A stretch of 64,000 bases of DNA from the sequence record NC_025447.1; one strand, given 5' to 3'. A program made the translations under genes and the position numbers. Below are positions 538 through 29,186 of the stretch, one piece after another. The notes beneath the pieces are model-generated. The model saw only the letters and a program-made list of their open reading frames with translations, had not been told where the DNA came from and made no database searches. Source of the DNA: Escherichia phage 121Q. Numbering within the stretch: the first letter of the stretch is position 1; each line of letters starts with the position of its first letter.

Positions 538-781
538 TATGAAAGTACTATCTGAATTAGAAATGCATAATAGATTATACAAGTACTACCATTTACTTAA
601 ACCTATACAGAGGATTAAGTGTCCCTTTGAAGTGAAACAGGTTTTAATTTATGAGCATAAGTTCTTTGTATCATTAGGTACGAACCATCAAGAGTACTTT
701 TTGAAGTTGTACTTGATTACATTAATAGATTTAATTCACTATAAAACCAAACAAGCTAATAAAGAGAAATATGAAAACTAA
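521..781 (+). CDS. LGT-QE family small protein
   Basis: 86 aa ORF; core FVSLGTNHQEYFLKLY; alternative non-overlapping ATG at 539. Confidence 0.55.
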   Translation: MEYVFNMKVLSELEMHNRLYKYYHLLKPIQRIKCPFEVKQVLIYEHKFFVSLGTNHQEYFLKLYLITLIDLIHYKTKQANKEKYEN

Positions 782-1112
782 AATTCAACTCAGGGTATAC
801 ATATCGTATGAAAATATATACGTTAAAAGTAGTCTATGTAAAGATGTAATGGACTACAAAGGTAAACCATTCACAGTTACTTACAGTTTAACAGGAGGTT
901 TATATATCTCTTTTGCTAATTACGAAAATAATATGTACGAACACATTGACATTGAAGATTTAAGTACTTTATCACCAGAGGAATACTTTCAGGAATCATT
1001 AGTATGGGATTTAGAGTTTCCTATGCCATTAGTACATAAGATGATAGTACTAATGAAAGAATCTAAACAGGAGCCTAATGGTGATTATGAAGAACACATT
1101 ATTGAGTATTAA
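771..1112 (+). CDS. FQxS-core family protein
   Basis: 113 aa; C-terminal core SPEEYFQESLVWD shared with ~50 paralogs. Confidence 0.65.
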   Translation: MKTKIQLRVYISYENIYVKSSLCKDVMDYKGKPFTVTYSLTGGLYISFANYENNMYEHIDIEDLSTLSPEEYFQESLVWDLEFPMPLVHKMIVLMKESKQEPNGDYEEHIIEY

Positions 1113-1144
1113 GAGTTCTGATAGTACTGATAGTACAAATGTTC

Positions 1145-1173
1145 TTGACAGTACTTTTCATTACTGATATAGT
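1145..1173 (+). promoter_or_regulatory. sigma70-like promoter
   Basis: TTGACA, 17-nt spacer, TATAGT in intergenic gap upstream of 1203 ORF. Confidence 0.5.
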
Positions 1174-1202
1174 GCACCAACGTTAATCATAGGGTACAGA
1201 TT

Positions 1203-1448
1203 ATGTTAAAATTTTTAAATTTCCTTATCGTCTTGTGTATTGTTCTTGGAATTGCACCGTTTGTATTAGCGTATCTGGATTCAGATGAAATGCAGAAGAT
1301 GAATTGCACAAAGACAGGACAGAGTAGAGAAGAGACGGTTATGATGCCTGTAACGGTTATTGTGAATAACATACCAATTACGAACATGATTCCTACCCTA
1401 ACGACAACGTACCAGTACTCTTGTACAGATGGAGAGAGGTGGAGATGA
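1203..1448 (+). CDS. hypothetical small protein, hydrophobic N-terminus
   Basis: 81 aa ORF after promoter; N-terminal FLIVLCIVLGIAPFVLAYL looks like a TM helix; minus-strand ORF 1187-1387 judged a shadow. Confidence 0.4.
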   Translation: MLKFLNFLIVLCIVLGIAPFVLAYLDSDEMQKMNCTKTGQSREETVMMPVTVIVNNIPITNMIPTLTTTYQYSCTDGERWR

Positions 1449-1765
1449 AATTTAATATAGCAAAAACATCGAATGTATGTATATTTGGTTATGCAGATGA
1501 GTTAGGTGATATTGACATTCTTTTGTACAAAAAGGATGGTGTTATGCATTTCAAGTACCAGGATGAAGAGGCAGACAATTATCCTTTACCTAATTTAGTA
1601 CAAATGCAGGAAGAGGAATTATTCCAGTACAGCTTAGTATATGACATTGATATTTGCACGATGCCAGTACTAATTAATATTCAAAAAGTGATGCTCGATG
1701 TGTTTGATAGGCTAATACAAGGCACACAAGGAAGAACCATATATGTCAATGTACAAGACAATTAA
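1421..1765 (+). CDS. FQxS-core family protein
   Basis: core QEEELFQYSLVYD. Confidence 0.65.
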   Translation: MYRWREVEMKFNIAKTSNVCIFGYADELGDIDILLYKKDGVMHFKYQDEEADNYPLPNLVQMQEEELFQYSLVYDIDICTMPVLINIQKVMLDVFDRLIQGTQGRTIYVNVQDN

Positions 1766-2900: not shown

Positions 2901-3446
2901 ATGAATGATATAGAATTATTAGCACACAAGATTAGTACAATAATGCTTATCCTCAATAACAACCATCCTATATCGAAGATAGATGGAATCCTGAGTCAGA
3001 GGACAGGTGGTAGTTTATATTTGACATTAACAGAGGTTATCGCAAGGAATTACATTGATATTGAAATCGAGAACAGTGATGCATCAGGAAAGGTTGATGT
3101 AGGTGCATTAATCAGTTCAAATCCAGTATCAGCATCCCCATTGACCAAAGGTGTTAGTACAGGATTCGAAGGGTATTTGTGGTACAATACCAATGATGAT
3201 TATTTTATATATCAGCATTCCAATACAAATTATGATGAAGACAAATTTCAGTTCATAGACCCTTATGATGAAGCTGAAGTATTTCAAAAATCATTAATCA
3301 CAAAACCGCATGAGATGATGTATCTAATGTTATTCAGTACAATGCATTTGAATCCATTAATTAAAGGTTTAAAATTTTATATTCAATTGAATTTAGTCCA
3401 TGTAGTTTATGATTTATTAATGCAAGGATATAGTTATGAAGTATAA
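2901..3446 (+). CDS. FQxS-core family protein
   Basis: core DEAEVFQKSLITKP. Confidence 0.6.
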   Translation: MNDIELLAHKISTIMLILNNNHPISKIDGILSQRTGGSLYLTLTEVIARNYIDIEIENSDASGKVDVGALISSNPVSASPLTKGVSTGFEGYLWYNTNDDYFIYQHSNTNYDEDKFQFIDPYDEAEVFQKSLITKPHEMMYLMLFSTMHLNPLIKGLKFYIQLNLVHVVYDLLMQGYSYEV

Positions 3447-3753
3447 AATGCTTAATACAGTATCAGGGGTATATGTAGAATTAGAATCCGATTATTCAGA
3501 TGGATGGAATTTTATTAAACGACACGATAGAAATACATGGTACATGGCACATTTGGATAATGACGTAATAATAGATAATTTTGTCGATTTTAATACATTA
3601 TCAGAAGAAGAATTTTTCCAAATGCAATTTGTGCTTGATACAAATGGATTTGATTTGCTATTATTAAGGAATATTCAGAAAGCGGTTAATGAATTCATAA
3701 TCCAAAATAATTCAGGTAAAATGGGGATGTTCCATGATCTGGAAGTACAATGA
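3436..3753 (+). CDS. FQxS-core family protein
   Basis: core SEEEFFQMQFVLD. Confidence 0.6.
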   Translation: MKYKMLNTVSGVYVELESDYSDGWNFIKRHDRNTWYMAHLDNDVIIDNFVDFNTLSEEEFFQMQFVLDTNGFDLLLLRNIQKAVNEFIIQNNSGKMGMFHDLEVQ

Positions 3754-4291
3754 AATTCAGTACACCTACGCTAATGCAATCCTTATGGGACAAAAGTTAG
3801 CTTGTATTGTTGCAGCCTTATATAATGCCCAGAAATATCACAAGCGTCATTTCCACAAATGTATTGGTATTATTCCATCGAAGTACAATACATATATTGC
3901 GTGCACGAGTCATTTTGATAAACGATTCAATACACCTGATACCCCAAATGCCAGTAGTGTTATTGGTCTTTTGGATTTCGCACCTGGTGCTGTTATTGGA
4001 AAGAATGATTTAGAGTACACATGGTATAATAAAAATGCCCCGTTAGTAATGGTAAAATATGATACAGAAACGAATAAAACAATAGAGTACAATACATATA
4101 AATCAGAGGAAGAATTTTTCCAAGGTTCATTGCTTGTGCCAGTGCGTTTGTTGTTTTATAATGTCCTTATTAGTACAGTACACAATAGTCCATTACACAA
4201 GAATCACAAAATTAATTTCAATTTTTGTGCTTATGCGATTGATGGTGTGTATGAGTGTTTAATGGAGGTATTGAGTTATGAAGCTGAATAA
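3734..4291 (+). CDS. FQxS-core family protein
   Basis: core SEEEFFQGSLLVP. Confidence 0.6.
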   Translation: MIWKYNEIQYTYANAILMGQKLACIVAALYNAQKYHKRHFHKCIGIIPSKYNTYIACTSHFDKRFNTPDTPNASSVIGLLDFAPGAVIGKNDLEYTWYNKNAPLVMVKYDTETNKTIEYNTYKSEEEFFQGSLLVPVRLLFYNVLISTVHNSPLHKNHKINFNFCAYAIDGVYECLMEVLSYEAE

Positions 4292-4619
4292 TACATTTGA
4301 TATTAATAAGTTAAGAGAATGGTTTTATAGTATTGAAATTGAAGCCATCCCGTATCATAGATATGAACAATATAATTTAACCAGTATTGATATCAGTGAG
4401 TTGTACGCGTATTATCAAAGTGCATTAGAGATGCATAAGTTATTTTTGAGTACAGATTTTGTTCTAAATTACAATTTTGAGGAATTTAATAATTATAATT
4501 TAGTACAGAAATATGTAGTAGCAAAGTATATGTACCTTCAAGGAATTACAAGTAATTTGGAATTCAATACAGTCCTTGCTTTAGTTGAGGTAATTTTATG
4601 CAGTACATGTATGATTTAG
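4278..4619 (+). CDS. hypothetical protein
   Basis: 113 aa ORF, overlaps neighbours by a few nt; no family motif seen. Confidence 0.45.
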   Translation: MKLNNTFDINKLREWFYSIEIEAIPYHRYEQYNLTSIDISELYAYYQSALEMHKLFLSTDFVLNYNFEEFNNYNLVQKYVVAKYMYLQGITSNLEFNTVLALVEVILCSTCMI

Positions 4620-5104
4620 AGTTCAGCTTAGATGCTGCATTTAAATATGTTCACAAGATAGAAACAATATACAGTACATTATGTGCAATACAATCAGTAT
4701 CATCTGAGTTTGATGTTGGTGAAAAATATCAGGTATGGAATAATACATTTCTAAACAAAGAACGTTGCTCTACGGGGTTTAATATTTTAACATTTAATCC
4801 CAGCAATTGTTACCCAGAGAAGCATGAACGTTATCCGAATGACGACATGTGGTTTGATTACACAAAAGATGGTGATATGTCATCCCTTGTAGTTCCTGAT
4901 GATTTTAATGCCGAAGATTTAACGGAAGAGTGGTGGTTTCAACAGAATTTAGTACACGATGATATTGATTTATTTTTTTATGTAGTATTTAAAATGCTTT
5001 ACCACAACAATATATTAAAAGATAGTGTGTTTTTTTCATGTCTATATATTGATGATTTGTACAATGAAATCCAAATCAACATTCCCAGCACGCCTGTATC
5101 GTAA
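4598..5104 (+). CDS. FQxS-core family protein
   Basis: core TEEWWFQQNLVHDD. Confidence 0.6.
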   Translation: MQYMYDLEFSLDAAFKYVHKIETIYSTLCAIQSVSSEFDVGEKYQVWNNTFLNKERCSTGFNILTFNPSNCYPEKHERYPNDDMWFDYTKDGDMSSLVVPDDFNAEDLTEEWWFQQNLVHDDIDLFFYVVFKMLYHNNILKDSVFFSCLYIDDLYNEIQINIPSTPVS

Positions 5105-5129
5105 GATATGGGCTTTTTTCGTTTTGGTA

Positions 5130-5158
5130 TTGACAAAGAAGTGCAAAGCTGTTATCAT
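5130..5158 (+). promoter_or_regulatory. sigma70-like promoter
   Basis: TTGACA, 17 nt, TATCAT upstream of AAGGAG RBS. Confidence 0.5.
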
Positions 5159-5186
5159 GTGTAATCATTTTAAAGGAGAACATATA

Positions 5187-5687
5187 GTGAGTTTCATAAT
5201 CCCAAGTACATACGAAGATGCATCAAGTGCAGTTCATAAGATTCATTATATTTTTAATTTAATTATTAGATCTGCAAAAATTAAAATGTATGCACCTCTT
5301 GTGACAAATAATCGAAATGAAGAAATTTTTATTAGCACAGACAAAATTATTTTTCCATATTTCAATGAAGATAGATTGTGGTTCATACATTTAGCTGCAT
5401 TACAAAAATATAAGATGTCAATTCGTAATAATTTGGTTATACCGTTATATCATCCCGATATTGGAGAGGATGAGTATTTTCAGTACAGCACAGTACACCA
5501 CCATGAAGATATCTTTGCTGCTATGCTTATTGCTAAATTGAACACCGTTGATTTGGAGCAGTACAAATACAATAATAAATCATGTAAGATCATAATCCCT
5601 GCATTCATAGCTCTTTATGATTATGTGGTGCATAACAAAAAAGATGATACATATGCTTTCAATGAAGAGTATTTGAATTTTTTTTAA
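5187..5687 (+). CDS. FQxS-core family protein (GTG start)
   Basis: AAGGAG 8 nt upstream of in-frame GTG at 5187; core GEDEYFQYSTVHHH; ORF-track start at 5025 would run through the promoter. Confidence 0.55.
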   Translation: MSFIIPSTYEDASSAVHKIHYIFNLIIRSAKIKMYAPLVTNNRNEEIFISTDKIIFPYFNEDRLWFIHLAALQKYKMSIRNNLVIPLYHPDIGEDEYFQYSTVHHHEDIFAAMLIAKLNTVDLEQYKYNNKSCKIIIPAFIALYDYVVHNKKDDTYAFNEEYLNFF

Positions 5688-5696: not shown

Positions 5697-6224
5697 ATGA
5701 GCAGTGACGTGCAGAAATCAATGACATTCAATGAAATTGGTGCATTTAAAGATAAGATCATTGATTGTCTTGAATACATGATTTGTAGTAATATCGAAAG
5801 TATCGAGATATTTAACAAGACAAATCGCTCTTACCATATGATGTACATTGCAAACAATAATGGTATCATTCCATTTATTTCGGATAGTACAATATGGTAC
5901 GCATGTGATACGAAAAAAACCACAATAGGTTTACATTTATTTGAGACACATTATGATCTAATTATTCCTGAACATTGTATGCAAGAAGAAGAATATTTTC
6001 AAATGCAATGTATACATTCACCATTAGTGTTGTTTAGTTTATATATTATACCTTATATCACCAAATGTGTTCATGAGAATAAAGCTCCGTGGAATCATGA
6101 ATTTGTATCGTTGAAGTTATTGTATAATGTATTAGTAGAATATTATGATTACAGGCACAATGGTACAATCAGTGATGTATGGGATTTTGAATCGCTAAGG
6201 GTGAAAACATACACAGGTGAATGA
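5697..6224 (+). CDS. FQxS-core family protein
   Basis: AAGGAG RBS; core QEEEYFQMQCIHSP. Confidence 0.65.
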   Translation: MSSDVQKSMTFNEIGAFKDKIIDCLEYMICSNIESIEIFNKTNRSYHMMYIANNNGIIPFISDSTIWYACDTKKTTIGLHLFETHYDLIIPEHCMQEEEYFQMQCIHSPLVLFSLYIIPYITKCVHENKAPWNHEFVSLKLLYNVLVEYYDYRHNGTISDVWDFESLRVKTYTGE

Positions 6225-6840
6225 TATGACCAGAATTAAAATGTATGATTTGATGCAGTACAGTAAAATTGCCATTCCAGTGCTTAATAAAGTGCTGGAT
6301 GCATTCATTGCCAAATACCCTGAGAATTCAGTGTTATGTATTCCATTTAGTGTTCCAGATAAAGATGATATATTCCAAGTGAATGTCAGTACACGTGGTA
6401 TTACATTGCAGCAGAAATACATGGATACGGAATATTATGGAATAAAGTTGGATTCAGTACAGGGTTCAAAATCAGCCTATGATTTTTTTGTTCCTAATAA
6501 TATAGAGTCATGGGAAACAAACATTTCAAAGAAAGATGAAAATGATGTTCCTATTAGTGGTGTGTTCAACAATAAAGTTTTTTATTATTACGAAACCGAC
6601 AAATTCCCTGAAGAGTTATATTACAATTCAGAAATGAGTGAGGATATAGATGCATTCATGTTTCAATTATCTTTAGTACATGATATCATTGATGTTCAAG
6701 AGTTAAGAGCAGAAATCAATTTAGCTAAAGAGTTATCGGACATGCTGCCACCGTTTAGTATGCTTTTTTGTGAAGGAGGTTATTTTTCAAAAGAAGTGTT
6801 TGAACATTTCGTAGATGTTGTAAAAGGGTTGGATATATAG
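6217..6840 (+). CDS. FQxS-core family protein
   Basis: core DIDAFMFQLSLVHD. Confidence 0.6.
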   Translation: MNDMTRIKMYDLMQYSKIAIPVLNKVLDAFIAKYPENSVLCIPFSVPDKDDIFQVNVSTRGITLQQKYMDTEYYGIKLDSVQGSKSAYDFFVPNNIESWETNISKKDENDVPISGVFNNKVFYYYETDKFPEELYYNSEMSEDIDAFMFQLSLVHDIIDVQELRAEINLAKELSDMLPPFSMLFCEGGYFSKEVFEHFVDVVKGLDI

Positions 6841-7045: not shown

Positions 7046-7561
7046 ATGCATCAACACAAGCATCATTCATATGATTTTGCAATTAACATTATGAAGTTCA
7101 TTCGAGCGTTGGAGGATGGGAAGCTTAGTCATAAGTACAGGAAAGAGGGTAACAATTGGTTCAGAAATGATTCCGAGTTCAGTTGTCATAAAATCGTGTA
7201 TAGTAATCAGTACAGTGCCAATTACCTACAAGATGTAGTGATGTGTTTTGAATACGTGTTGCAGTTCAGGGGTTCAATCCAAGATGAGTTGATGGAGAAC
7301 ATGTACATCCGATACCTTCCAATGCTCAAAGATGAAAATGTATTATTAAATTCAATATACCAACGAGTTCGTGAAATTGAGTGCAGGGATATATTAGATA
7401 CAGAAGAATCGTATTTCCAGCATTCCCTGATTTATTCACCTGATTTATTACAGGTACATAATTTGTTTAATACATTACGTCAGAACATCAGTACAGACAT
7501 ATTTTTGTCATTATCGGATTATGATACATTTGTCAAAGATTTAGAGGAAATAGGTTTATGA
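7046..7561 (+). CDS. FQxS-core family protein
   Basis: core TEESYFQHSLIYSP. Confidence 0.6.
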   Translation: MHQHKHHSYDFAINIMKFIRALEDGKLSHKYRKEGNNWFRNDSEFSCHKIVYSNQYSANYLQDVVMCFEYVLQFRGSIQDELMENMYIRYLPMLKDENVLLNSIYQRVREIECRDILDTEESYFQHSLIYSPDLLQVHNLFNTLRQNISTDIFLSLSDYDTFVKDLEEIGL

Positions 7562-7899
7562 GTCGATTTTCGGTTTGTGTGGTAAACATAAAAAGTGATG
7601 GTAGTTTAATTGAATTAGATGTATATGATGATGATAATGCATATGGTATTAAAGTACAGGACAATGATGTGCAGTTCAGTTCAAGAACAAATTTTGAAAA
7701 TCCAGTCCAAGTTCCTAATTTCATAGAAGATGAAGCAGCACGTTTCCAATACGAAACGGCATATGACAATGTACATATGCATATTATTATGCAACAAAGT
7801 TTAGTTCAATTAGTTCCTTTGTTCAGACAAAATATATATGTACATGAATTGTCGATCAATGACGTTCGCAGTTCCGTATTGTTCGATACAAATATGTAA
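7558..7899 (+). CDS. FQxS-core family protein (divergent)
   Basis: core DEAARFQYETAYD. Confidence 0.55.
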   Translation: MSRFSVCVVNIKSDGSLIELDVYDDDNAYGIKVQDNDVQFSSRTNFENPVQVPNFIEDEAARFQYETAYDNVHMHIIMQQSLVQLVPLFRQNIYVHELSINDVRSSVLFDTNM

Positions 7900-7909
7900 G
7901 GAAAGTACA

Positions 7910-9069: not shown

Positions 9070-9268
9070 AGACGTTTCATTTTGACAGGCCGCAGGGGGG
9101 GTCAAAAAAATTTCCGCTGAAAAACATGCTAAGGTATATGTTTAATATAAAGTTTTATATTGTGTTTTTCAGAGTACAGTTCATGTTTCCTGAAACAAAA
9201 AAAATACCCCGCCACCGAACGTGCTCTTTATATTGGAGTTTACCTTATTAATTATAGTAGAGATTAAG

Positions 9269-10947: not shown

Positions 10948-10956
10948 GATTATAAA

Positions 10957-11451: not shown

Positions 11452-11452
11452 A

Positions 11453-12360: not shown

Positions 12361-12362
12361 TA

Positions 12363-16387: not shown

Positions 16388-16392
16388 AACAA

Positions 16393-17442: not shown

Positions 17443-17449
17443 GGTTTAT

Positions 17450-17986: not shown

Positions 17987-18012
17987 CACCCTCCGATTCT
18001 TTGTGATATAAT
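17983..18012 (+). promoter_or_regulatory. sigma70-like promoter with extended -10
   Basis: TTGACA, 18 nt, TGaTATAAT; sits in the gap before the 18046 gene. Confidence 0.55.
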
Positions 18013-18045
18013 CTCTTTATATTAATTGTAAAGGGTTATATCACA

Positions 18046-21315: not shown

Positions 21316-21826
21316 AGATGATATTCTAATTAGACTAATTAATAGTTTAATAAAGTTCTCAAATAATGATGTCGATACATACAAAGTGGGGGATATTGAA
21401 TTTAAATCATTTGGTATGTACGGTGAGGATAAAACATATTATGCGTCAATGAAATTTCAAGATTTTCACGAGATGTTAATATCGTTATCATATGAAGATG
21501 TTGATCCAAGATGGAGTTCCAGTATTTCACTATCGAGAATGGTAATTCGTAGTAAGCATCGTTATATTTCGTCAAAGAATACTCCTAACTTGATTAATAT
21601 TGTGTTGAATGAAAATACAAATCCCCTATCTAAACATGATATCGTACCGTTAACCGATGAAGTTCTTTTTCAATTGAGTACCATTTGTGATGAAGATGTG
21701 ATATCATGTATGAAAATTTATGAGAAGGTTGGGAGTGATATTCCCATGAACTATTACCTAACTATAGATGGAACGTACCTTCGAGATGAGGTTCTAGCGT
21801 ACATTGACAGTGTTTTACCAAAATAA
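21308..21826 (+). CDS. FQxS-core family protein
   Basis: ATG at 21308; core TDEVLFQLSTICD. Confidence 0.6.
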   Translation: MDKDDILIRLINSLIKFSNNDVDTYKVGDIEFKSFGMYGEDKTYYASMKFQDFHEMLISLSYEDVDPRWSSSISLSRMVIRSKHRYISSKNTPNLINIVLNENTNPLSKHDIVPLTDEVLFQLSTICDEDVISCMKIYEKVGSDIPMNYYLTIDGTYLRDEVLAYIDSVLPK

Positions 21827-21847
21827 AGACCCGTATGGGTCTTTTTG
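21827..21847 (+). terminator. rho-independent terminator
   Basis: AGACCC-gtat-GGGTCT hairpin followed by TTTTT. Confidence 0.6.
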
Positions 21848-21913
21848 TGTTTATGGCTTTACAAGAGCATTCAGGTGTGTTATACTTGATTTTAACTAGA
21901 GTTGGAGGAATCT

Positions 21914-22480
21914 ATGAGTACTGAATTAATTAAAGAAGTCACATTACTTCTGAAGCATTGTTTTAAGTTCATTCCTGATACTGGCTCACGCCAGTACATT
22001 AAAGTTAATGAGAAATATAACATCAATATCCTTGTATCTGAAACTGCGAGCAGTTATGCTAACATTGAGTTGGATTCTGAAGAAAAATATACAGTATTAC
22101 AAATCATAGCAGATGTACAACGTAAACAAGATTATCGTTCTTCATTTTACAACGATTATCTGTGCGTTTGCTCAAACTTCAGTGAGAATAAAATTGTGTA
22201 TAAGAATTTATACACACATGAAGTGATTGATACATATAATTATAAAATTTCATCTGATGAATACAATGTTCTAATGTTCAACGCAAACCTTTTGTATGAT
22301 GCCAGTACTGTACGCTGTTTAGAGTTAGCATATAAAATTCCAAAGATCATGGAAAGAAAAGATTTGATTCACTTTAAAACAATTTTAAAATACAGTACAA
22401 AAGAATTAGAGGATTTAGTACAGGCTCTTAAGAATTTCATTAATGAACATGTACCTGTTAAATTCGAGGATGCACAATGA
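21914..22480 (+). CDS. hypothetical protein
   Basis: GGAGG RBS 5 nt upstream of ATG at 21914; no clear family core. Confidence 0.5.
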   Translation: MSTELIKEVTLLLKHCFKFIPDTGSRQYIKVNEKYNINILVSETASSYANIELDSEEKYTVLQIIADVQRKQDYRSSFYNDYLCVCSNFSENKIVYKNLYTHEVIDTYNYKISSDEYNVLMFNANLLYDASTVRCLELAYKIPKIMERKDLIHFKTILKYSTKELEDLVQALKNFINEHVPVKFEDAQ

Positions 22481-23061
22481 ACCATATCAGAACTAAAATT
22501 TTGAGACTCATGCATGACATTGCAGAACTTTCAGAGATTCATGACATTACGGAAATTGTTGAATTTGATAATTATCGACTGAAAATTGAAAACAAATCCA
22601 AACATCGTTTTGGTTCAGTTCAGTTGGATGTATATAAAACTTATGAATTTTCTAAAAAAATTAAAAGTTCATGGGATACGATTACTATGTACATTCGCAC
22701 ATCCAGAAATCGTGAACGTATTGGTTCTATTTCTTCTAATATGGTATTTGCGAATGCATTACATGAAAAAATGAATAAAATTGTAGAATCTGATTTCAGT
22801 GAAGATGATGGTTTTATTGGGTTGGATGTTCCACCAGAATTAGACCAAAGTGAAGATATTCGAGATGCATTCATTTTCCAGAAATCATTGTTGGACAATT
22901 ACAAAGAATTCGAGTACTTAATGCTTTGTTACGATACTGCAAAAATTCTTGATTGTGGTGAACTAGTTATGTACAATGATTTTATCAATTGCAAGACTGA
23001 TGTTCTGAATACACTACTTCAAAATATAGAATCTGTTAAGGAAAAATATGAACGCTTATAG
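22477..23061 (+). CDS. FQxS-core family protein
   Basis: core IRDAFIFQKSLLDN. Confidence 0.6.
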   Translation: MNHIRTKILRLMHDIAELSEIHDITEIVEFDNYRLKIENKSKHRFGSVQLDVYKTYEFSKKIKSSWDTITMYIRTSRNRERIGSISSNMVFANALHEKMNKIVESDFSEDDGFIGLDVPPELDQSEDIRDAFIFQKSLLDNYKEFEYLMLCYDTAKILDCGELVMYNDFINCKTDVLNTLLQNIESVKEKYERL

Positions 23062-23629
23062 TTATATGACAGAACGCCATCAGTTATTATATGATATCAG
23101 TAAAAAAATGCTATCAATTGTTGGTAGTGCGAAAGAAATTGAAAAACAATATCTCATCCGTGATGTAGCAATTTCATCTAAATGTTGGTCAAATGAATAT
23201 TACGACCACGGTATTCTTACTATTTCTGGGGCTAGAAATATTTGTATTGTAAAAAATAAAAGTAAAAGTAATGAAGAGTGTGAGATTAGAACCGATATAC
23301 AAATTAAGGATGATGGAAGTTTTTCACACCACCCATTCCATATTAGTACTATTGGTGTTTTATATAATATTAAAGTACTATTCGGTGATGAAGAGTATGT
23401 GTTAAAAGCTATCAATCCAGATTCAAGTACAGTTGAAGAAGAACTGTTCCAGATGAGCACTGTTATACCTGAAGAGGTTCTTAGTACTGTTGTTTTTTGT
23501 AGTTTAATTTATCATACATACAAAAAGAACCAATTCGATTTCCACATTTTAGGAACGTACATCTTCAATACTTTGAATGTTGATCGTTTAAAAGCATTAA
23601 ATGCAGCAATGGATAAGGTGCTACAATGA
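23048..23629 (+). CDS. FQxS-core family protein
   Basis: core VEEELFQMSTVIP. Confidence 0.6.
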   Translation: MNAYSYMTERHQLLYDISKKMLSIVGSAKEIEKQYLIRDVAISSKCWSNEYYDHGILTISGARNICIVKNKSKSNEECEIRTDIQIKDDGSFSHHPFHISTIGVLYNIKVLFGDEEYVLKAINPDSSTVEEELFQMSTVIPEEVLSTVVFCSLIYHTYKKNQFDFHILGTYIFNTLNVDRLKALNAAMDKVLQ

Positions 23630-24054
23630 CAAGAGATGATTGTTTGTACATATGGGATATAATTGAAACTACACTTTCAAATCCAGAAAATTATAAAACA
23701 AAAAAAAGACAACGACACAAAATATGGATAGATTTGTTCGTTGAGGGCATACACGCAGTGACTATTTGGGATTCACCGAGGGCATCAGCATCTACTCTAT
23801 TGGACAATGAATGCATTGATTGCATTAATTCCACTTTTCATCTCTACGGTACTACATTTTTCGGTACATTTCTGGATATTGAAAGTAAAGATGATATTGA
23901 TTCACTTGCGTTACAATACCAAGTACTGTATAATACTAAATTAATTTACGATTTAGTACTAGCTTCTTATGTGTATAAATTAATGATGAAATATAATCAT
24001 ATTTCTGTTTCAGTTTATACTAAGGATATTCTTTCATTAAGAGACAAAACATGA
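23626..24054 (+). CDS. hypothetical protein
   Basis: 142 aa ORF, ATGA-coupled; no family core. Confidence 0.45.
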   Translation: MTRDDCLYIWDIIETTLSNPENYKTKKRQRHKIWIDLFVEGIHAVTIWDSPRASASTLLDNECIDCINSTFHLYGTTFFGTFLDIESKDDIDSLALQYQVLYNTKLIYDLVLASYVYKLMMKYNHISVSVYTKDILSLRDKT

Positions 24055-24560
24055 GTTTATTAAATGCACGCGAATTAGTTGAGATGTATGAGATTTTGTC
24101 TTCATATAAAAATTCTCATGGAGATGTGATTCTCGACAAAAAGTTCCATGTCAGTGTTGAACATATATCAAATATAGATATGATTTCTTTGGTGGAAAGT
24201 AATAAGTCAGGTCTTGAACGCGATATCATGCGTTTGATTTATATTCCCAAACCATCATATACTAATGATAGTTCAATTAGTAATGAGACATTCATGTATA
24301 GTCCTGGTACGGATTCTACTATAGTATCGCTGTCCAATAAATCAATGGGTACTTTCCAATTCATCTATACCAGTACTGATAACATTGAAGAAATTGAATT
24401 TCAAAACAATACATTAAGTCCATGTAGTAGTGTTATAACCTTTATGTCATATCTATGGTCAACTAAAACAAGTGCTGTTGTATATAGTTCAAATTATACA
24501 CAAGATAGTATTGTTGAATCATATAAAGTTCTAAAGGAATACTATGAAAATAACAAATGA
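24051..24560 (+). CDS. FQxS-core family protein (weak)
   Basis: core IEEIEFQNNTLSP. Confidence 0.5.
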   Translation: MSLLNARELVEMYEILSSYKNSHGDVILDKKFHVSVEHISNIDMISLVESNKSGLERDIMRLIYIPKPSYTNDSSISNETFMYSPGTDSTIVSLSNKSMGTFQFIYTSTDNIEEIEFQNNTLSPCSSVITFMSYLWSTKTSAVVYSSNYTQDSIVESYKVLKEYYENNK

Positions 24561-25125
24561 TTTTATTAAAAGTGTAGTACACCCTATGCTTAGTATTATG
24601 AAAAAAATACAGAATCTACCGGAAGATAACGATTACAAGTTTAATCGTTTTGATTCAGATGTGTTTTGTATTGAAATTGAAATTAATAACAATCGCAATT
24701 TACATTTAAAATTCAAAGAATCGTCAAGTCCGTACTACAACTTTGATATGAATTTTAAAATAGATACTGACATTGAAGAAAACGTAATATCAAATCATAC
24801 TAGCAAAAATGGTTTTATGCATAGAACTACTATGTACAATAATAAAAATAGTATTATATCTAAATGGAATCATCAATTCACTAAAATTTGTGAAATTGAA
24901 TATAGTGATTTTGGTGAAGAGAATTACTTTCAGTTAAGTACAATTCATGAACTTCCACCGTATGATTATGTTAAAACATGGTTTGATATTCATAATATAA
25001 TTGATGATGCAATCAAACTTCCTTTTGGTGTGTCAATATCATATACTGCTCCTAAAACATTTGTTTTTACTGAAGATATGATTATGAAAAAGATATGGGC
25101 AATTATCCCACTTATGATGGATTAA
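24544..25125 (+). CDS. FQxS-core family protein
   Basis: core GEENYFQLSTIHE. Confidence 0.6.
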   Translation: MKITNDFIKSVVHPMLSIMKKIQNLPEDNDYKFNRFDSDVFCIEIEINNNRNLHLKFKESSSPYYNFDMNFKIDTDIEENVISNHTSKNGFMHRTTMYNNKNSIISKWNHQFTKICEIEYSDFGEENYFQLSTIHELPPYDYVKTWFDIHNIIDDAIKLPFGVSISYTAPKTFVFTEDMIMKKIWAIIPLMMD

Positions 25126-25130
25126 ATTCG

Positions 25131-25157
25131 TACCAGGGGTTGACTCTGGTATTTTTG
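25131..25157 (+). terminator. rho-independent terminator
   Basis: TACCAG-gggttgact-CTGGTA hairpin followed by TTTTTG. Confidence 0.55.
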
Positions 25158-25186
25158 TATGATACATTGTCCTAAAGGAGAATTTT

Positions 25187-25738
25187 ATGAACTACAATCA
25201 TGATCTTTTTACATTATGTGCATCCAAATGTGTTGATGGATGGACAGATAAAATCAATACCATAATTCATCGATATCTGGTCTTTAGTTCTCGTGCACGA
25301 AGTGAGGGGGCTATGGATTTCAAATATACACTATCTATTGATGGTGTAACTATCCATGCAGACGAAGAACGTCTGAGCATTAATTTGTATGATTCATGTG
25401 TATTTGCTATTCACCAAAAGATGGGGAAAGGATGGGGTTGTAATAACATTAACTCAAAAGCTATCTTTTGGGTTGGTCACCACCAGACAGTACTTGATCC
25501 TTCAATCAAATCTAATCTTTTATCCGATAATATGGTTTATGATTTATTGTACTCCGAAGAACAACATTTTCAGTTAAGTACATTACATGATCTGGCACAG
25601 TACGAGGATTGTTACAAAACATTAGAACTATGCCATTCCCTTGAACTTAAAGATAAATTGATACAAGTTTACCCTTCATTCTTTCATGAAGAAGTACAAA
25701 GTACACTAGATCATATTTTATATGGATACGATAAATGA
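25187..25738 (+). CDS. FQxS-core family protein
   Basis: AAAGGAG RBS; core SEEQHFQLSTLHD. Confidence 0.65.
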   Translation: MNYNHDLFTLCASKCVDGWTDKINTIIHRYLVFSSRARSEGAMDFKYTLSIDGVTIHADEERLSINLYDSCVFAIHQKMGKGWGCNNINSKAIFWVGHHQTVLDPSIKSNLLSDNMVYDLLYSEEQHFQLSTLHDLAQYEDCYKTLELCHSLELKDKLIQVYPSFFHEEVQSTLDHILYGYDK

Positions 25739-26337
25739 GAAAAAGTTATCAAGAAGCTATTGACTTAATTCGTGAAGTTATCAAGGTGGCTCCTGCTGCT
25801 ATTGAGTTCAAGAAGTCCATATACAAGAAGTATGGTTCAATGTCGAGTATGTGCTTTCAAAAGAAACGTAGAGCATTCACTACCCAGTACTGGAATGATT
25901 CTATCATCCTGAGCAATGAGACTCAGCGTATTTTAACACTAGAATCTGAACCTAATGAGTACGGGGAAGGGAACATTTGTGTACCTGATTATGATGAAAT
26001 TAACTTCAACTGCGGTGATTTTGAAACAACATTATTACTTCATGAGGGTTATCCAGAAGGTGATGTATTAGCTGAGTACAATCCAAAAACTAAAATTCTC
26101 AAAAGAGGAATCCAGTTCACTATTAATAACAAAGATGATGTTCAAGCAGCACTGATGCAACTGAGTACAAGTGAACCTATCACTATTAGTGTAGAAGAGT
26201 TATGGGGAATTATTTCAGTACTCAATGAGTGCTACAAAGTAAAATCATTGCGTAAACACAGCATTATATTACATACCAATATGGCAAATATAAAATGTAA
26301 GCACATTCAAGAAATGGTGGTTCCAGATGGACTTTAA
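25735..26337 (+). CDS. hypothetical protein (possible divergent FQxS member)
   Basis: 200 aa; degenerate core DDVQAALMQLSTSEP. Confidence 0.45.
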   Translation: MRKSYQEAIDLIREVIKVAPAAIEFKKSIYKKYGSMSSMCFQKKRRAFTTQYWNDSIILSNETQRILTLESEPNEYGEGNICVPDYDEINFNCGDFETTLLLHEGYPEGDVLAEYNPKTKILKRGIQFTINNKDDVQAALMQLSTSEPITISVEELWGIISVLNECYKVKSLRKHSIILHTNMANIKCKHIQEMVVPDGL

Positions 26338-26911
26338 AGAAATTGAAAGTAAATTAAAGTACTTCAAAGATATCAAACTTCTTTGGAAAAAGTATAAAGT
26401 TGATTACAATTTCAGTGATGATGAGACAATAAAATACATTGAGATTAATATCAAAATCAAGTTCAAGAATAATAATTATGGTGAAGTAACCTTAAATCAT
26501 ACTGGTATATCACTCAAGGACTATGATGGTACAACACTCGCATATTTTGACTTCACACCAGAACCAGGTGAAACACTACTTAGTGAGATAAATTCCTATG
26601 ACATGGAAGTGTTCGGCGGGAATCCGTTACTGTTCCGACTTTCTGAAGAGTGGAGTGAAGAGTACTACACTTACAAAGATGGTGTAGTACTTGACATTCA
26701 TGGAGAAGTTGTGAATGACTTGGAAGAACGTTTGTTCCAAGAATTGTGTGTTTCAAATACTTCATATGCATACAATCATATCCTTGACATGTTTGATTTA
26801 TATAGTAAAATAGATGCTGAAATGAAGGCACATGGTATTCATTACCTTACAATTAACGACTATGCTCAACTCGAAACCGCTGTGAAAGCATTGACTAAAG
26901 TACTGAAATAG
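26327..26911 (+). CDS. FQxS-core family protein
   Basis: core LEERLFQELCVSN. Confidence 0.55.
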   Translation: MDFKEIESKLKYFKDIKLLWKKYKVDYNFSDDETIKYIEINIKIKFKNNNYGEVTLNHTGISLKDYDGTTLAYFDFTPEPGETLLSEINSYDMEVFGGNPLLFRLSEEWSEEYYTYKDGVVLDIHGEVVNDLEERLFQELCVSNTSYAYNHILDMFDLYSKIDAEMKAHGIHYLTINDYAQLETAVKALTKVLK

Positions 26912-26920
26912 GAATGAAAT

Positions 26921-27334
26921 ATGAAACTGTATCATGCGAGTACTGTAAAAATTGATAACTTTTATATCCCGTATGGTGGTCTTCATATGGGAGGTAAACA
27001 CAGTGCTTTGGAAGCTGCATTACGCAAGCTGAGAAGCCCACTGAACGTAGTAGACGCATGTACAGTATACTTGCATACCTTAGAAGTTGATGTTGATAAC
27101 GTGCTTCTGTGTGAAGATTTAGGCAGTGATGATGAGTGGCGTTCACTTATTGAGAATTGCACTGCTCAAGGTTATGATGCTGTTCAGTACAAAAATGATT
27201 ACGAGCCAGACAATGTTCCTAGCTTTATGATTTGGGATGCATCTAAAGTTCGCATCATTGAAGTTGATGCTATGCATATGGATGAAGCTGAAATGATTAT
27301 CGAAGATTTTCTTGATGAATATGAAGGTGTATAA
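26921..27334 (+). CDS. hypothetical protein
   Basis: 137 aa ORF; overlapping minus-strand ORFs judged shadows. Confidence 0.45.
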   Translation: MKLYHASTVKIDNFYIPYGGLHMGGKHSALEAALRKLRSPLNVVDACTVYLHTLEVDVDNVLLCEDLGSDDEWRSLIENCTAQGYDAVQYKNDYEPDNVPSFMIWDASKVRIIEVDAMHMDEAEMIIEDFLDEYEGV

Positions 27335-27870
27335 TGTCTGACCCGATGGTAGCACTGGCACGTACAAAATTACTATTAAAGATTGGTGAGATTTTTACGG
27401 TTCTTCTGTCCAATAATATTGATATCACTGAGCTAGATATTAAGCAACCGTGGGAAGTGACTATGTTCTCGGCGTTCCACCGATTGTCATATAAAGGTGA
27501 AAGTGTTCTTGATTTTAACCCTAAAGCAAAATTCATAGATTATGCTGCGTTGTACAGAGAGTTGCACCGAAATATTTATTCCGGTTGTATAACCAATAAC
27601 TTCAAAGAAATTAAAGTTCAAACTGCATCACATGAGTTCAATGATTTACTTTATCCAGAATTTAATCTAACGGAAGAATTACTCTTTCAGTACTCGTTAA
27701 TTCTCACAAATCTCGAAACGCTAGAGTACTACAAAGAGTTAGTAGATATTTTTATGAATACACGACTTTCAAAAGATATTGTGATATTCTGGTATACAGA
27801 GCATGTTACGGAGGAATTGCTTACTGAATTTCTTCTAAATATGACAGCTATAAAGGAGAAGTTATGTTAG
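27334..27870 (+). CDS. FQxS-core family protein
   Basis: core TEELLFQYSLILT. Confidence 0.6.
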   Translation: MSDPMVALARTKLLLKIGEIFTVLLSNNIDITELDIKQPWEVTMFSAFHRLSYKGESVLDFNPKAKFIDYAALYRELHRNIYSGCITNNFKEIKVQTASHEFNDLLYPEFNLTEELLFQYSLILTNLETLEYYKELVDIFMNTRLSKDIVIFWYTEHVTEELLTEFLLNMTAIKEKLC

Positions 27871-28337
27871 ATATTTTAGGAAACATCGATACTGCAAATT
27901 ATTTTATCCAGGACGCACTGTTCAATACAGTTCAACAAGGATTAGAAGTTCGTCATAACGTTTACCAAGGTGATGGTTATTTCGTTGATATTGTTGAGGC
28001 ACGAAAGAATACGTTTAATGTTAACATTACAACACTGGGTAGACAGAACATTGCACGAATTTTAGTAAGTAAAGATGAAATTGTATTGAGATACAGTGCT
28101 AAGTTTATGTTGACTTATAAGAAAAAAACTGATATGTTCAGTACTAATTTATTTGATGAACCATTTGACCTTGAAGATATTGAAGCTACTTTCTTTACTC
28201 AAAGTACTATGGTAAAATACACTGATGTTCAATTTTCTGCTGATGTAATGTCAGAAACATTACAAATGATCAAGGTATTATTTTATGCATTTGAGCAATT
28301 TAGAGAAGAAAGAAACAAGGTTAACAACCACAGATGA
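27864..28337 (+). CDS. FQxS-core family protein (divergent)
   Basis: core IEATFFTQSTMVK. Confidence 0.5.
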   Translation: MLDILGNIDTANYFIQDALFNTVQQGLEVRHNVYQGDGYFVDIVEARKNTFNVNITTLGRQNIARILVSKDEIVLRYSAKFMLTYKKKTDMFSTNLFDEPFDLEDIEATFFTQSTMVKYTDVQFSADVMSETLQMIKVLFYAFEQFREERNKVNNHR

Positions 28338-28698
28338 ACTAATAGAGGCGATCACTAAGGAGTCAAAATACCACAAAGGGATTCGTCTATATTTTATAGA
28401 TATTGGTTCAATGGAAGGCATATACATTTATGGTTCACAATCTTTATCTTATGATGTAATGCCAAAAAAACATGTAAAAATCTTTTTAGGTTCAAATAAA
28501 AAAACTTTCTTGACAATTAATGATAAAAACGTTATTATGAATTCGTTGGGTCATGATAAGGTGGAAATTGATCTAAACACGCTTGAGGATATTGATTTTT
28601 TTCAATACGAGTGTTTAGGTGTTGACTTACATGGCATTAGTAGCGATAAGATAAAATCATTAATCAAATATTTCGAAGGTGTTCATAAATGTATCTAA
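28285..28698 (+). CDS. FQxS-core family protein
   Basis: core LEDIDFFQYECLG; start uncertain because of 53-nt overlap with upstream gene. Confidence 0.5.
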   Translation: MHLSNLEKKETRLTTTDELIEAITKESKYHKGIRLYFIDIGSMEGIYIYGSQSLSYDVMPKKHVKIFLGSNKKTFLTINDKNVIMNSLGHDKVEIDLNTLEDIDFFQYECLGVDLHGISSDKIKSLIKYFEGVHKCI

Positions 28699-29186
28699 CT
28701 AAATCAATGAAAAATTCATTTGATAAAATCAAGAGTTGTCTTGATGGGGAAAATATTACAAGTGTTACACAAACTGCTGACCAAATTCAAAGCAGTTCAA
28801 ATGATTGTACTGTTATTTTAGGTTTACATAGTCTACGTTTATCAATAGTAAATAATATTGACAACACTGCTATTGTAATCACACCATGCCATATTCAAAA
28901 TGAGAATGGTGTATATCTTCATCACATGGGAACAGTATTTCATATTTTCAATACAAACGAAAACATTGTTAAGGAATACAAATCTCTTAATATTGATTCA
29001 GGTGAATTATTTCAAATGAGTACTTTGTACTCATGTAATTTTACAGATACTTCATGTATTTTGCCATTTTTCTTGGAAATTATTAAGAAAATGGAAAATT
29101 TAAAACGTGAATACAATAAAGAAATGGTTCCTGAAGCTATATTAAATATTACTAATGCTATAGAGAAGTATAATGCAGTGACTTAA
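28689..29186 (+). CDS. FQxS-core family protein
   Basis: core DSGELFQMSTLYS. Confidence 0.6.
   Translation: MYLTKSMKNSFDKIKSCLDGENITSVTQTADQIQSSSNDCTVILGLHSLRLSIVNNIDNTAIVITPCHIQNENGVYLHHMGTVFHIFNTNENIVKEYKSLNIDSGELFQMSTLYSCNFTDTSCILPFFLEIIKKMENLKREYNKEMVPEAILNITNAIEKYNAVT

Follow-up and report, generated by a model that had tools for sequence, protein, structure and literature searches.

Hua et al. (2017, PMC5646251) noted that 121Q and phage G each carry over 30 similar genes in tandem and described such arrays as one way in which genomes grow, an idea restated in the phAPEC6 paper. In the distant relative PA5oct, genes of the repeat region are early by RNA-seq (PMC7318152). The window analysed here (the whole stretch of 64,000 nt) is from an Asteriusvirus jumbo phage of the PBECO4/121Q type, with 96-98% nucleotide identity to G17, Sharanji, and slurp01. 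The direct terminal repeat of G17 is 20,668 bp, and those of Sharanji and fEgEco12 are similar in size (PMC11895373, PMC13070987); from the inner edge of the G17 repeat, it is ~6.7 kb downstream to the start of the array considered here. The array occupies ~28 kb (771-29186) of this giant E. coli phage and contains diverged paralogues of one uncharacterised small-protein family.

The first-pass annotation had described roughly 50 co-oriented, translationally coupled ORFs with a shared C-terminal core. The single family and its core were borne out by HMM convergence and an in-register motif, but the number is a slight overcount: 43 members are confident (41 co-oriented ORFs in 771-29186 and two at 40271-41535), two probable members bring the total to 45, and up to four doubtful ones would bring it to at most 49. 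An iterated HMM converged on 39 ORFs, every one within 771-29186, and a broader HMM added 40846-41535 (E=4e-6) and 7558-7899 (E=3.6e-4). Jackhmmer searches seeded with 14343-14879 and 40271-40849 retrieved 128 and 138 family proteins, respectively. The two probable members were placed by hhalign (24051-24560 at 87.5% and 20213-20755 at 60.7%), and profiles of the long and short types aligned with 98.2% probability. Member lengths range from 104 to 229 aa; gene starts are longest-ORF starts, some of which are over-extended. The members are as follows.

771-1112, +, family member, short type, 113 aa, SPEEYFQESLVWD; HMM E=5.3e-17
1421-1765, +, family member, short type, 114 aa; HMM E=1e-13
2901-3446, +, family member, 181 aa; HMM E=3.5e-17; phrog_19795
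3436-3753, +, family member, short type, 105 aa, FQMQ variant; HMM E=1.6e-11
3734-4291, +, family member, 185 aa, without orthologue in phage UE-S1; HMM E=8.4e-12
4598-5104, +, family member, 168 aa, FQQN variant; HMM E=3.5e-11
5025-5687, +, family member, up to 220 aa; HMM E=1.1e-11; G17 orthologue annotated at 513 bp
5697-6224, +, family member, 175 aa; HMM E=8.3e-11
6217-6840, +, divergent family member, 207 aa; HMM E=5.1e-5; window-only HMM E=2.7e-12
7046-7561, +, family member, 171 aa; HMM E=1.4e-14
7558-7899, +, divergent family member, 113 aa, EAARFQYET; HMM E=3.6e-4
7838-8461, +, family member, 207 aa; HMM E=1.3e-10
9221-9646, +, family member, short type, up to 141 aa; HMM E=5.6e-15
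9867-10235, +, family member, short type, 122 aa, without UE-S1 orthologue; HMM E=4.5e-14
10235-10591, +, family member, short type, 118 aa; HMM E=6.9e-17; AlphaFold2 pLDDT 83.8, pTM 0.80
10588-10947, +, family member, short type, 119 aa; HMM E=3.5e-15
10957-11451, +, family member, 164 aa, first of five recent tandem copies; HMM E=1.4e-26
11453-11923, +, family member, 156 aa, recent tandem copy; HMM E=6.4e-19
11920-12360, +, family member, 146 aa, recent tandem copy; HMM E=4.3e-21
12363-12851, +, family member, 162 aa; HMM E=4.9e-26; AlphaFold2 pLDDT 82.8, pTM 0.80
12829-13281, +, family member, 150 aa, recent tandem copy; HMM E=1.7e-25
13278-13592, +, family member, short type, 104 aa; HMM E=1.2e-7
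13897-14346, +, family member, 149 aa, TEEGYFQGSTVYE; HMM E=4.6e-15
14343-14879, +, divergent family member, 178 aa, DEQCFQLSC; HMM E=0.044; jackhmmer retrieves 128 family proteins
15234-15794, +, family member, 186 aa; HMM E=1.8e-10
16393-16755, +, family member, short type, 120 aa; HMM E=2.5e-13; phrog_13866
16679-17122, +, family member, up to 147 aa; HMM E=1.8e-12
17101-17442, +, family member, short type, 113 aa; HMM E=7.7e-13
17402-17986, +, family member, up to 194 aa; HMM E=6.1e-18
18046-18522, +, family member, 158 aa; HMM E=7.8e-16
18519-19013, +, family member, 164 aa; HMM E=1.3e-18
18979-19341, +, family member, short type, 120 aa; HMM E=4.1e-17
19325-19738, +, family member, short type, 137 aa; HMM E=3.5e-13
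19726-20229, +, family member, 167 aa; HMM E=4e-16
20213-20755, +, probable family member, 180 aa; hhalign 60.7%, E=8e-5; tied by jackhmmer to three family proteins
20752-21315, +, family member, 187 aa; HMM E=4.9e-12; RaK2 reciprocal best hit
21260-21826, +, family member, up to 188 aa; HMM E=1.8e-13
23048-23629, +, family member, 193 aa; HMM E=3.5e-12
24051-24560, +, probable family member, 169 aa, EIEFQNNTL; hhalign 87.5%, E=3.6e-6; HMM E=0.038
24544-25125, +, family member, 193 aa; HMM E=2.7e-10
25187-25738, +, family member, 183 aa; HMM E=7.1e-8
27334-27870, +, family member, 178 aa; HMM E=6.9e-7
28689-29186, +, family member, 165 aa, last of the main array; HMM E=8.6e-8
40271-40849, +, outlying family member, 192 aa, EHFQISTLYD; HMM E=0.0057; jackhmmer retrieves 138 family proteins
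40846-41535, +, outlying family member, 229 aa, SEEEHFQLM; HMM E=4e-6

The members are co-oriented, as had been claimed, and all lie on the + strand. Genes firmly assigned to the family account for 65.6% of the sequence in 771-29186 and for 29% of the whole window. Of the 66 gene junctions within the array, 51 are overlaps and a further 10 have spacings of at most 15 nt; therefore, "translationally coupled" is a fair description. Two outlying loci had also been assigned to the family, of which 40271-41535 stands, as two genes. The other, 31890-32744, is not supported: it has no HMM hit, jackhmmer retrieves its RaK2 orthologue only, and hhalign gives 2.7%.

The motif, [ST]-E-E-x-[YLF]-F-Q-x-S-[LT]-[VIL]-[YHW]-[DN], is in register across the alignment and sits 39-70 residues before the C-terminus, with F and Q as the sole invariant columns. 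Among 176 non-redundant relatives, conservation is S/T 63%, E 78%, E 76%, F 100%, and Q 100%, followed by S 89%, L/T 92%, and V/I/L 92%; F and Q are unchanged even among paralogues that are just 10-20% identical. FQxS occurs 48 times over the three + frames versus 6 over the three - frames. In 771-29186, the 67 + strand ORFs that are not nested contain it 36 times, where 2000 within-protein shuffles gave 1.2 +/- 1.1 (maximum 8). Similarly, the acidic-context form [DE]xxFQx[SQAN] was observed 33 times versus 0.46 expected.

No named domain had been recognised in these proteins, and Pfam, NCBIfam, and PADLOC searches matched none of 39 members, nor did a PDB sequence profile search match the family. 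PHROGs splits it over at least 25 groups, all of unknown function. When 1.84 billion representative proteins were searched exhaustively with an HMM, only 115 clusters were returned, all small, and EExxFQxS is kept in all but one (P0085, judged spurious). Fold matches in BFVD were to uncharacterised proteins of RaK2-like phages only. The family is thus confined to RaK2-like jumbo phages, with ~8-9 copies in GAP32, at least 31 in RaK2, 39 in UE-S1, and 43-45 here (39-45 across Asteriusvirus). In Klebsiella phage RaK2 the array is syntenic with the one here, and the reciprocal best hits between the two are collinear; for instance, 18519-19013 is the orthologue of RaK2 ORF419 (30% identical by tblastn; reciprocal best hit). 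Growth by tandem duplication, as previously suggested, is evident in the five adjacent genes at 10957-13281, which are 35-59% identical (59% between 10957-11451 and 12363-12851), and in the genes starting at 9221, 10235, and 10588 (41-45%). However, the syntenic RaK2 array of at least 31 copies and the ~8-9 copies of GAP32 argue against a recent burst in this genome. The expansion is old, and the family is real and kept by selection.

Between orthologues from two Asteriusvirus genomes, the family has a pooled omega of 0.27, which falls to 0.15 around the motif; neighbouring genes have 0.12. Each member is under purifying selection in this comparison: none has an omega of 1 or more (maximum 0.74; one near-identical pair was not estimable). 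The N-terminal regions had been noted to diverge strongly, which holds between paralogues but not between orthologues, where their omega is 0.271 versus 0.272 for the core domain; therefore, no signal of a fast arms race is visible at this timescale. These data bear on the possibility that the array is mostly neutral filler, in which tandem duplicates without individual function occupy an enlarged capsid through the headful "ratchet" of Hua et al. (2017). The published genome-growth idea and the recent tandem copies at 10957-13281 favour this. However, given the selection data, it is quite improbable; additionally, reading frames are unbroken in all genomes examined, F and Q are invariant across highly diverged paralogues, and arrays are common to several genera.

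The setting of the array is consistent with early expression. Candidate regulatory sites within it are as follows.

1145-1173, +, sigma-70-like promoter site in a 90-nt gap; TTGACA-17-TATAGT, 11/12, TG present
5092-5158, +, terminator-like hairpin (5092-5113), then promoter-like site (5130-5158); G17 terminator annotated at the same place
9082-9111, +, promoter-like site in a 151-nt gap; TTGACA-18-AAAAAT, 10/12
17983-18012, +, perfect sigma-70 consensus in a 59-nt gap; TTGACA-18-TATAAT, 12/12, TG present
21825-21886, +, terminator-like hairpin (21825-21844), then promoter-like site (21858-21886); 75-nt gap
25130-25168, +, terminator-like hairpin (25130-25152) overlapping promoter-like site (25140-25168); 61-nt gap

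All five intergenic gaps longer than 40 nt contain a sigma-70-like site, one matching at 12/12. Across the promoter scan as a whole there was no excess over shuffled sequence (110 sites versus 125 expected), and it is the placement in gaps alone that is suggestive. The true start of 5025-5687 is probably near 5175, downstream of the site at 5130-5158. Together with position and the analogy with PA5oct, these sites suggest that the array is expressed early. In the phAPEC6 virion proteome, no protein is listed from gp347 to gp549, a range in which one family member is gp442c.

The best explanation, given about even confidence, is that these are early, non-structural proteins that interact with the host and share a single conserved scaffold, forming a host-takeover or anti-defence battery. 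The array grew through successive tandem duplications where the terminal-repeat region meets the conserved early/middle gene block. Its proteins would be produced intracellularly at an early stage of infection, from a small number of operons transcribed by the host RNA polymerase, and would not be packaged, and each paralogue would probably bind a separate host or defence target, or a host-strain variant of one target. Position, promoter-like sites, and absence from the virion proteome fit such a role, while nothing specific points to the "decoy" role also proposed. If this is true, the array is a battery of accessory factors that broadens the range of cells open to the phage.

Against this explanation, orthologue comparison gave no diversifying selection, and the collinear orthologues kept between genera are also compatible with a role in the phage's own biology. 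The proteins could instead be regulators, chaperones, assembly factors, or hetero-oligomer subunits joined via the conserved helix pair, each paralogue being retained for a fixed internal role. Collinearity between Asteriusvirus and RaK2, purifying selection on every copy without an N-terminal excess, and an invariant F-Q that could form a shared interface are all in keeping with this. However, copy number varies ~five-fold among related genera (8-9, 31, 45) and 2 of 40 members are absent from a genome just ~8% diverged, a pattern more typical of accessory than core functions. The doubled omega relative to neighbouring genes and a virion proteome without any member also make an internal role the less likely one, and we consider it unlikely overall.

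The family comprises small, soluble, mostly acidic proteins with a predicted alpha+beta fold. Mean values are -0.31 for GRAVY, 5.2 for pI, and -9 for net charge, and a hydrophobic 19-residue window is present in just 2 of 39 members. This acidity raises the question of whether members act as DNA mimics or as anti-restriction proteins similar to Ocr and ArdA, whose negative charge would block host DNA-binding defence enzymes. The early position of the array and the recent sub-cluster at 10957-12851 (-21 to -26, pI ~4.05) are compatible with this. However, acidity is shared by non-family neighbours (mean pI 5.7), four members have a neutral or basic pI (7.0, 7.7, 8.65, and 9.07), fold comparison gave no similarity to any known DNA mimic, and the conserved feature of the family is not charge, making mimicry rather improbable.

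Two independent AlphaFold2 models (pLDDT 82.8 and 83.8, pTM 0.80 each) place the onset of helix 1 four residues ahead of F (H109-115 with F113; H65-74 with F69), followed by a second helix above a 5-7-stranded sheet. In these models the motif would be mainly a structural keystone: S/T at -5 may cap the N-terminus of helix 1, with E-E in its first turn, and D/N at +7 may cap helix 2. The conserved hydrophobic character of F at 0 and residues +4 to +6 suggests that they pack on the sheet, which would leave the remaining surface at liberty to differ among paralogues. The invariant Q is not accounted for by this role and may mark a common contact. A last reading, in which E-x-x-Y-F-Q-x-S is a protease recognition site and the proteins are protease substrates or decoys, is barely credible. 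The TEV/NIa protease consensus is E-x-x-Y-x-Q-(S/G), and the resemblance (for instance EEGYFQGS at 13897-14346) is in sequence only. No 3C/NIa-like protease was seen within the window, and both models confidently place the motif in a helix rather than an exposed linker. Moreover, whereas TEV/NIa sites have a small residue (S/G) directly after Q, most members have Y, L, E, or Q there, and the S of the family lies one position later.

The motif that defines the FQxS family of small paralogous proteins, [ST]-E-E-x-[YLF]-F-Q-x-S-[LT]-[VIL]-[YHW]-[DN], is a real feature of the main array (771-29186, + strand), as the first-pass annotation had proposed. FQxS is present 36 times in the 67 non-nested + strand ORFs of this region, compared to 1.2 ± 1.1 times in within-protein shuffles, and was counted 48 times in the translated + frames and 6 times in the − frames. 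The matches are in register, with F and Q the sole invariant columns in both full-length and domain alignments. Starting from the motif region, an HMM iterated over the window ORFs converged on 39 proteins, all within 771-29186, and a broader HMM brought in 40846-41535 and 7558-7899. Using jackhmmer, 128 family proteins were recovered with 14343-14879 as the query and 138 with 40271-40849. Two additional ORFs are probable members by hhalign (24051-24560, 87.5%; 20213-20755, 60.7%), and four more scored below 10%: 22477-23061, 26327-26911 and 23626-24054 at 4-9%, and 31857-32744 at 2.7%. Therefore, the "roughly 50" members initially counted become 43 that are confident, 45 with the probable ones, and at most 49 in all. 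The outlier at 31857-32744, which had been assigned to the family, contains PDDLMFQLML and has no HMM or jackhmmer link to it, and is not accepted here. ORFs 15785-16387, 21902-22480, 25735-26337, 26921-27334, 27864-28337, and 28285-28698 were also considered as hidden members and were rejected (hhalign ≤1.4%). The members fall into two length classes, one short (104-141 aa, 13 genes) and one long (146-229 aa), and the profiles of the two classes align with a probability of 98.2% over 73 columns. For 5025-5687, 9221-9646, 16679-17122, 17402-17986, and 21260-21826, the longest-ORF starts (GTG, TTG or an upstream ATG) are probably over-extended relative to annotated orthologues.

The family was described at first pass as having no recognisable named domain, and this was borne out: none of the 39 members has a match above curated thresholds in Pfam-A, NCBIfam, or PADLOC. 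Isolated matches were at chance level (best E = 0.004-0.006, one member each), and a sequence-profile search of the PDB gave no match to any protein with a solved structure. AlphaFold2 models were obtained for one long-type member (12363-12851; pLDDT 82.8, pTM 0.80) and one short-type member (10235-10591; pLDDT 83.8, pTM 0.80). The core common to both models is an antiparallel sheet, a helix starting four residues before the invariant F, a turn, a longer second helix, and a final strand, to which the long type adds an N-terminal helix and additional strands. The predicted fold appears to have no clear relative in the PDB. Among 176 non-redundant relatives, and with the invariant F numbered 0, the consensus is S/T at −5 (63%), E at −4 (78%) and −3 (76%), F and Q (both 100%), and S at +3 (89%), followed by L/T (92%), V/I/L (92%), Y/H/W, and D/N. 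In the models, S/T at −5 would cap the N-terminus of helix 1, the two glutamates would fill its first turn, and D/N at +7 would cap helix 2; the conservation of the hydrophobic motif positions suggests that they have a packing role. Given this assignment of capping and packing roles, the motif is best read as a predicted keystone of the fold, a role that leaves the invariant Q unexplained. A TEV/NIa-like protease cleavage site is a scarcely credible reading of the same residues, since the position after Q (+2) is not small (Y 30%, L 18%, E 9%, Q 8%) and the motif is predicted to be helical rather than exposed, with block-mean pLDDT of ~88-97.

The proteins are predicted to be soluble (mean GRAVY −0.31; a hydrophobic 19-residue window in two members only) and are mostly acidic, with a mean pI of 5.2 and a mean charge of −9; their non-family neighbours are acidic as well. 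DNA mimicry of the Ocr/ArdA kind is very unlikely. As a family-wide explanation it fails, because charge varies between −26 and +6, with four neutral or basic members (pI ≥7.0), and there is no fold match to any DNA mimic.

The genomic position of the array was established by comparison with related phages. By megablast, the window belongs to the genus Asteriusvirus (PBECO4/121Q-like jumbo myoviruses of E. coli, in the RaK2-like clade), with 97.6% identity to G17, Sharanji, and SHEFM2K over 10000-22000 and 96.7% identity to slurp01 over 41797-52686. Its G+C content is ~32%, and almost every long ORF lies on the + strand. The G17 record (MK327931) has a 20,668-bp direct terminal repeat with both copies present (1-20668 = 350150-370817), and terminal repeats of comparable size are described for Sharanji and fEgEco12, the latter backed by restriction mapping (PMC11895373, PMC13070987). 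Window position 771 corresponds to ~343420 in G17, and thus the FQxS array starts ~6.7 kb inward of the repeat. The Sharanji GenBank record (OR545507) ends at window ~9742, in the middle of the FQxS array and not at the G17-derived boundary, so its record start seems not to mark the physical genome end. Because of this disagreement, the boundary was taken from G17, whose record has both repeat copies. The 20.7-kb repeat of G17 holds ~53 very small genes in many short units, split by annotated rho-independent terminators, an organisation that differs strongly from the tightly coupled arrays downstream.

Along the direction of transcription, the order is terminal repeat, a 6-kb array of LGTNYQ ORFs (named for a conserved motif), the 28-kb FQxS array, and a block collinear with RaK2 and GAP32:

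104-319, 316-537, 521-781: LGTNYQ ORFs in the window; the array continues upstream in G17 (L002, reverse complement, 20960-27122)
33985-35036, 41797-42939, 44036-44968, 48376-49134, 51268-52686: conserved downstream block, with Dam methylase, cytidylyltransferase, RnlA RNA ligase, polynucleotide kinase/phosphatase, Ser/Thr phosphatase, and DNA ligase (annotations of Sharanji, UE-S1, RaK2, and GAP32)

RnlA and the kinase/phosphatase are the classic pair of tRNA-repair enzymes, which acts against PrrC-type anticodon nucleases. The LGTNYQ array, whose ~28-30 co-oriented tandem ORFs of 66-91 aa (~70 aa) separate the terminal repeat from the FQxS array, ends at window 781 and has the conserved C-terminal motif LGTNYQE-YV--YI--L---I--K. 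Kinship with the FQxS family was suspected because both arrays have an aromatic-Gln motif, and was rejected (hhalign 0.2-0.3%). A third set of paralogues, with mutual jackhmmer matches, lies at 36254-38399 and consists of six adjacent ORFs of 88-128 aa (36254, 36526, 36783, 37105, 37379, 37726/38109). Within the FQxS array, 2166-2552 and 13592-13900 belong to a separate family, of which RaK2 has ~10 copies of ~95 aa (L004, 2473-12125; jackhmmer).

The genes of the FQxS array are closely packed: 51 of the 66 junctions overlap, typically by 4 nt, ten more are separated by no more than 15 nt, and gaps wider than 40 nt occur at just five places. Each of these five gaps has a sigma-70-like site, although the scan total is not above that of shuffled sequence, so only the placement of the sites in gaps is suggestive. 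The promoter- and terminator-like sites of the window include:

1145-1173, + strand: sigma-70-like site in a gap
9082-9111, + strand: sigma-70-like site in a gap
17983-18012, + strand: sigma-70-like site in a gap, perfect (12/12 match, with TG)
21858-21886, + strand: sigma-70-like site in a gap, with a terminator-like hairpin ahead of it
25140-25168, + strand: sigma-70-like site in a gap, with a terminator-like hairpin ahead of it
5092-5158, + strand: terminator/promoter-like pair
31845-31873, + strand: strong terminator-like hairpin (stem of 8-12 bp, then a T run)
36213-36237, + strand: strong terminator-like hairpin of the same kind
39923-39942, + strand: strong terminator-like hairpin of the same kind

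The promoter-like site at 5130-5158 falls within ORF 5025. The 20-40 kb stretch has 18 terminator-like sites, compared to 5.6 expected from shuffles. In the distant clade member PA5oct, RNA-seq places the genes of the long terminal repeat in an early, highly transcribed class (PMC7318152); purely by analogy, the FQxS array may be expressed early.

When 1.84 billion representative proteins were searched exhaustively with an HMM of the family, 115 clusters were returned at E ≤ 1e-3, all of 65-348 aa. EExxFQxS is kept in all of them but P0085 (348 aa), which is on a 5.3-Mb gene-poor contig and was judged spurious. With Foldseek, the only matches in BFVD were uncharacterised proteins of RaK2-like phages (121Q, RaK2, Serratia BF, Yersinia fHe-Yen9-03/04, and, weakly, GAP32 and CBB). 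Copy number varies by phage, with 43-45 members in the window, 39 in UE-S1, at least 31 in Klebsiella phage RaK2 (in a syntenic array upstream of dam), and ~8-9 in GAP32, all of the long type and at a position equivalent to the array's downstream end. On a 13-kb metagenomic contig, 17 members lie within 12.5 kb. The divergent metagenomic members P0124 and P0078 have no tblastn match in the phage collection; the contig of P0124 is another FQxS array. Reciprocal best hits pair window and RaK2 genes in collinear order in the downstream half, where every gene from 25735 on has a one-to-one RaK2 partner. Judged from these sequence relationships and from the RaK2 copy number, much of the expansion is older than the split between the E. 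coli and Klebsiella lineages. Younger, lineage-specific duplications are found at 10957-13281 (five copies, 35-59% identity) and 9221/10235/10588.

Selection was estimated by comparison with UE-S1, which is ~92% identical.

Pooled omega for window genes relative to UE-S1
FQxS family: 0.27
Other array ORFs: 0.21
Genes at 29.2-41.8 kb: 0.125
Enzyme block: 0.12

The highest estimable value for a single member is 0.74, and one near-identical pair was not estimable. A contrast of dN/dS between the core and the variable N-terminal regions, suggested at first pass, gave no N-terminal excess (N-terminal part 0.271, core domain 0.272), and thus N-terminal diversifying selection was not seen; within six residues of the motif, omega is 0.15. 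Among 40 comparable members, two (3734-4291 and 9867-10235) lack an orthologue in UE-S1. Therefore, the genes are functional, under weaker constraint than their neighbours, and occasionally gained or lost, with no diversifying selection visible at the depth of UE-S1. That the array is neutral filler is contradicted by these data and is highly improbable.

The virion proteome of phAPEC6 (62 proteins) includes none between gp347 and gp549, a range in which gp442c is a family member; therefore, the family products are not detectably packaged. Overall, the FQxS family is best seen as an ancient, clade-specific superfamily of small cytoplasmic proteins, in which one scaffold was amplified at the repeat-proximal, presumably early genome end and its copies were diversified and kept as a battery of accessory factors, most likely acting on host targets. 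We consider this an about even proposition. An internal, phage-directed role, including hetero-oligomers, fits the retention of orthologues, fits less well with five-fold differences in copy number between genera, and is considered unlikely. A more specific form of host-directed battery, and a rather more doubtful one, is a phage-encoded repertoire of binders on a new scaffold. The conserved sheet-plus-helix-clasp core would then show at least 40 different surfaces, each adapted to its own target among bacterial immunity or housekeeping proteins, and this built-in anti-defence library would explain how RaK2-like jumbo phages cope with diverse Enterobacteriaceae; the invariant Q could point to a mechanism that all members have in common, for example through a shared partner or ligand.

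The individual proteins are not new to databases, as FQxS genes are annotated as "hypothetical proteins" in all published genomes of Asteriusvirus and RaK2. In PHROGs they are spread over at least 25 separate families, all of "unknown function" and with weak cross-hits only, and neither a unifying superfamily nor its copy number is recorded. Window proteins match PHROGs 9317, 12674, 13866, and 15629 (11, 11, 9, and 4 members, respectively) and at least 21 singleton PHROGs, every other member having its own PHROG, at E = 1e-50 to 1e-144; the entries are the same proteins from published RaK2-like phage genomes. Tandem gene arrays in 121Q and phAPEC6 have been remarked upon in one sentence in each of two papers (2017, PMC5646251; "array of closely related genes", PMC7247149). 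These remarks share with the FQxS array the phage genus, the part of the genome, and the explanation by tandem duplication, and probably refer to the adjacent LGTNYQ array of ~28-30 ORFs rather than to the FQxS family. In the literature on Asteriusvirus and RaK2-type phages, jumbo-phage paralogues, and anti-defence, no description of the FQxS superfamily, its motif, fold, distribution, or copy-number gradient was found, nor were expression data for these phages.

In a 350-kb phage, ~7% of all genes (coding sequence of ~20 kb) belong to this family, which is named in no database. One superfamily, recognisable by its motif, divided into two length classes, and with a predicted fold and copy numbers that grade from 9 through 31 to 45, now replaces 40-odd hypothetical proteins per genome, and what the scaffold binds and why so many versions exist become tractable questions. 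Tens of copies are kept by selection across several jumbo-phage genera with E. coli, Klebsiella, Salmonella, and Cronobacter as hosts. RaK2-like jumbo phages are therapeutic candidates, and for more than 80% of their genes no function has been assigned. If the family acts in host takeover or anti-defence, the array would be rich in new inhibitors of bacterial proteins; if its role is internal to the phage, it would be an unusual viral case of large-scale subfunctionalisation.

Comparable systems are known from other viruses. Bacillus phage G has a lineage-specific expansion of ~35 zinc-ribbon proteins, which are suggested DNA binders (Iyer et al. 2021, PMC7824862). As with FQxS, a single small domain has been amplified to tens of copies in one jumbo-phage lineage; however, the FQxS proteins are acidic, lack metal-binding cysteines or histidines, and have a different fold. 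The host-takeover and pre-early modules of SPO1, T5, and T4 consist of small early genes, mostly unrelated to each other, in or next to terminal repeats. They resemble the FQxS array in having small, non-essential-looking genes near the terminal repeat and products that are not in the virion, and their sigma-70-type promoters may have a counterpart in its promoter-like sites. In contrast, a single superfamily provides at least 43 genes in the FQxS array, which lies just inward of the repeat and not within it. The MGF110, MGF360, and MGF505 families of ASFV and the terminal host-range families of poxviruses have shown roles in host range and interferon evasion. Their sequences and hosts are unrelated to those of FQxS, for which a role in host range is putative and turnover between close strains is modest (2 of 40). 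Nevertheless, they too are tandem, co-oriented, highly diverged, non-structural paralogues near the end of a large linear dsDNA genome, and the FQxS array has the tandem co-oriented paralogues and lineage-varying copy number that characterise a terminal multigene family. As a phenomenon, the amplification of small early proteins within one lineage of large viruses is of a known kind; the scale here (~7% of genes), the age, and the unrecognised scaffold set the FQxS array apart.
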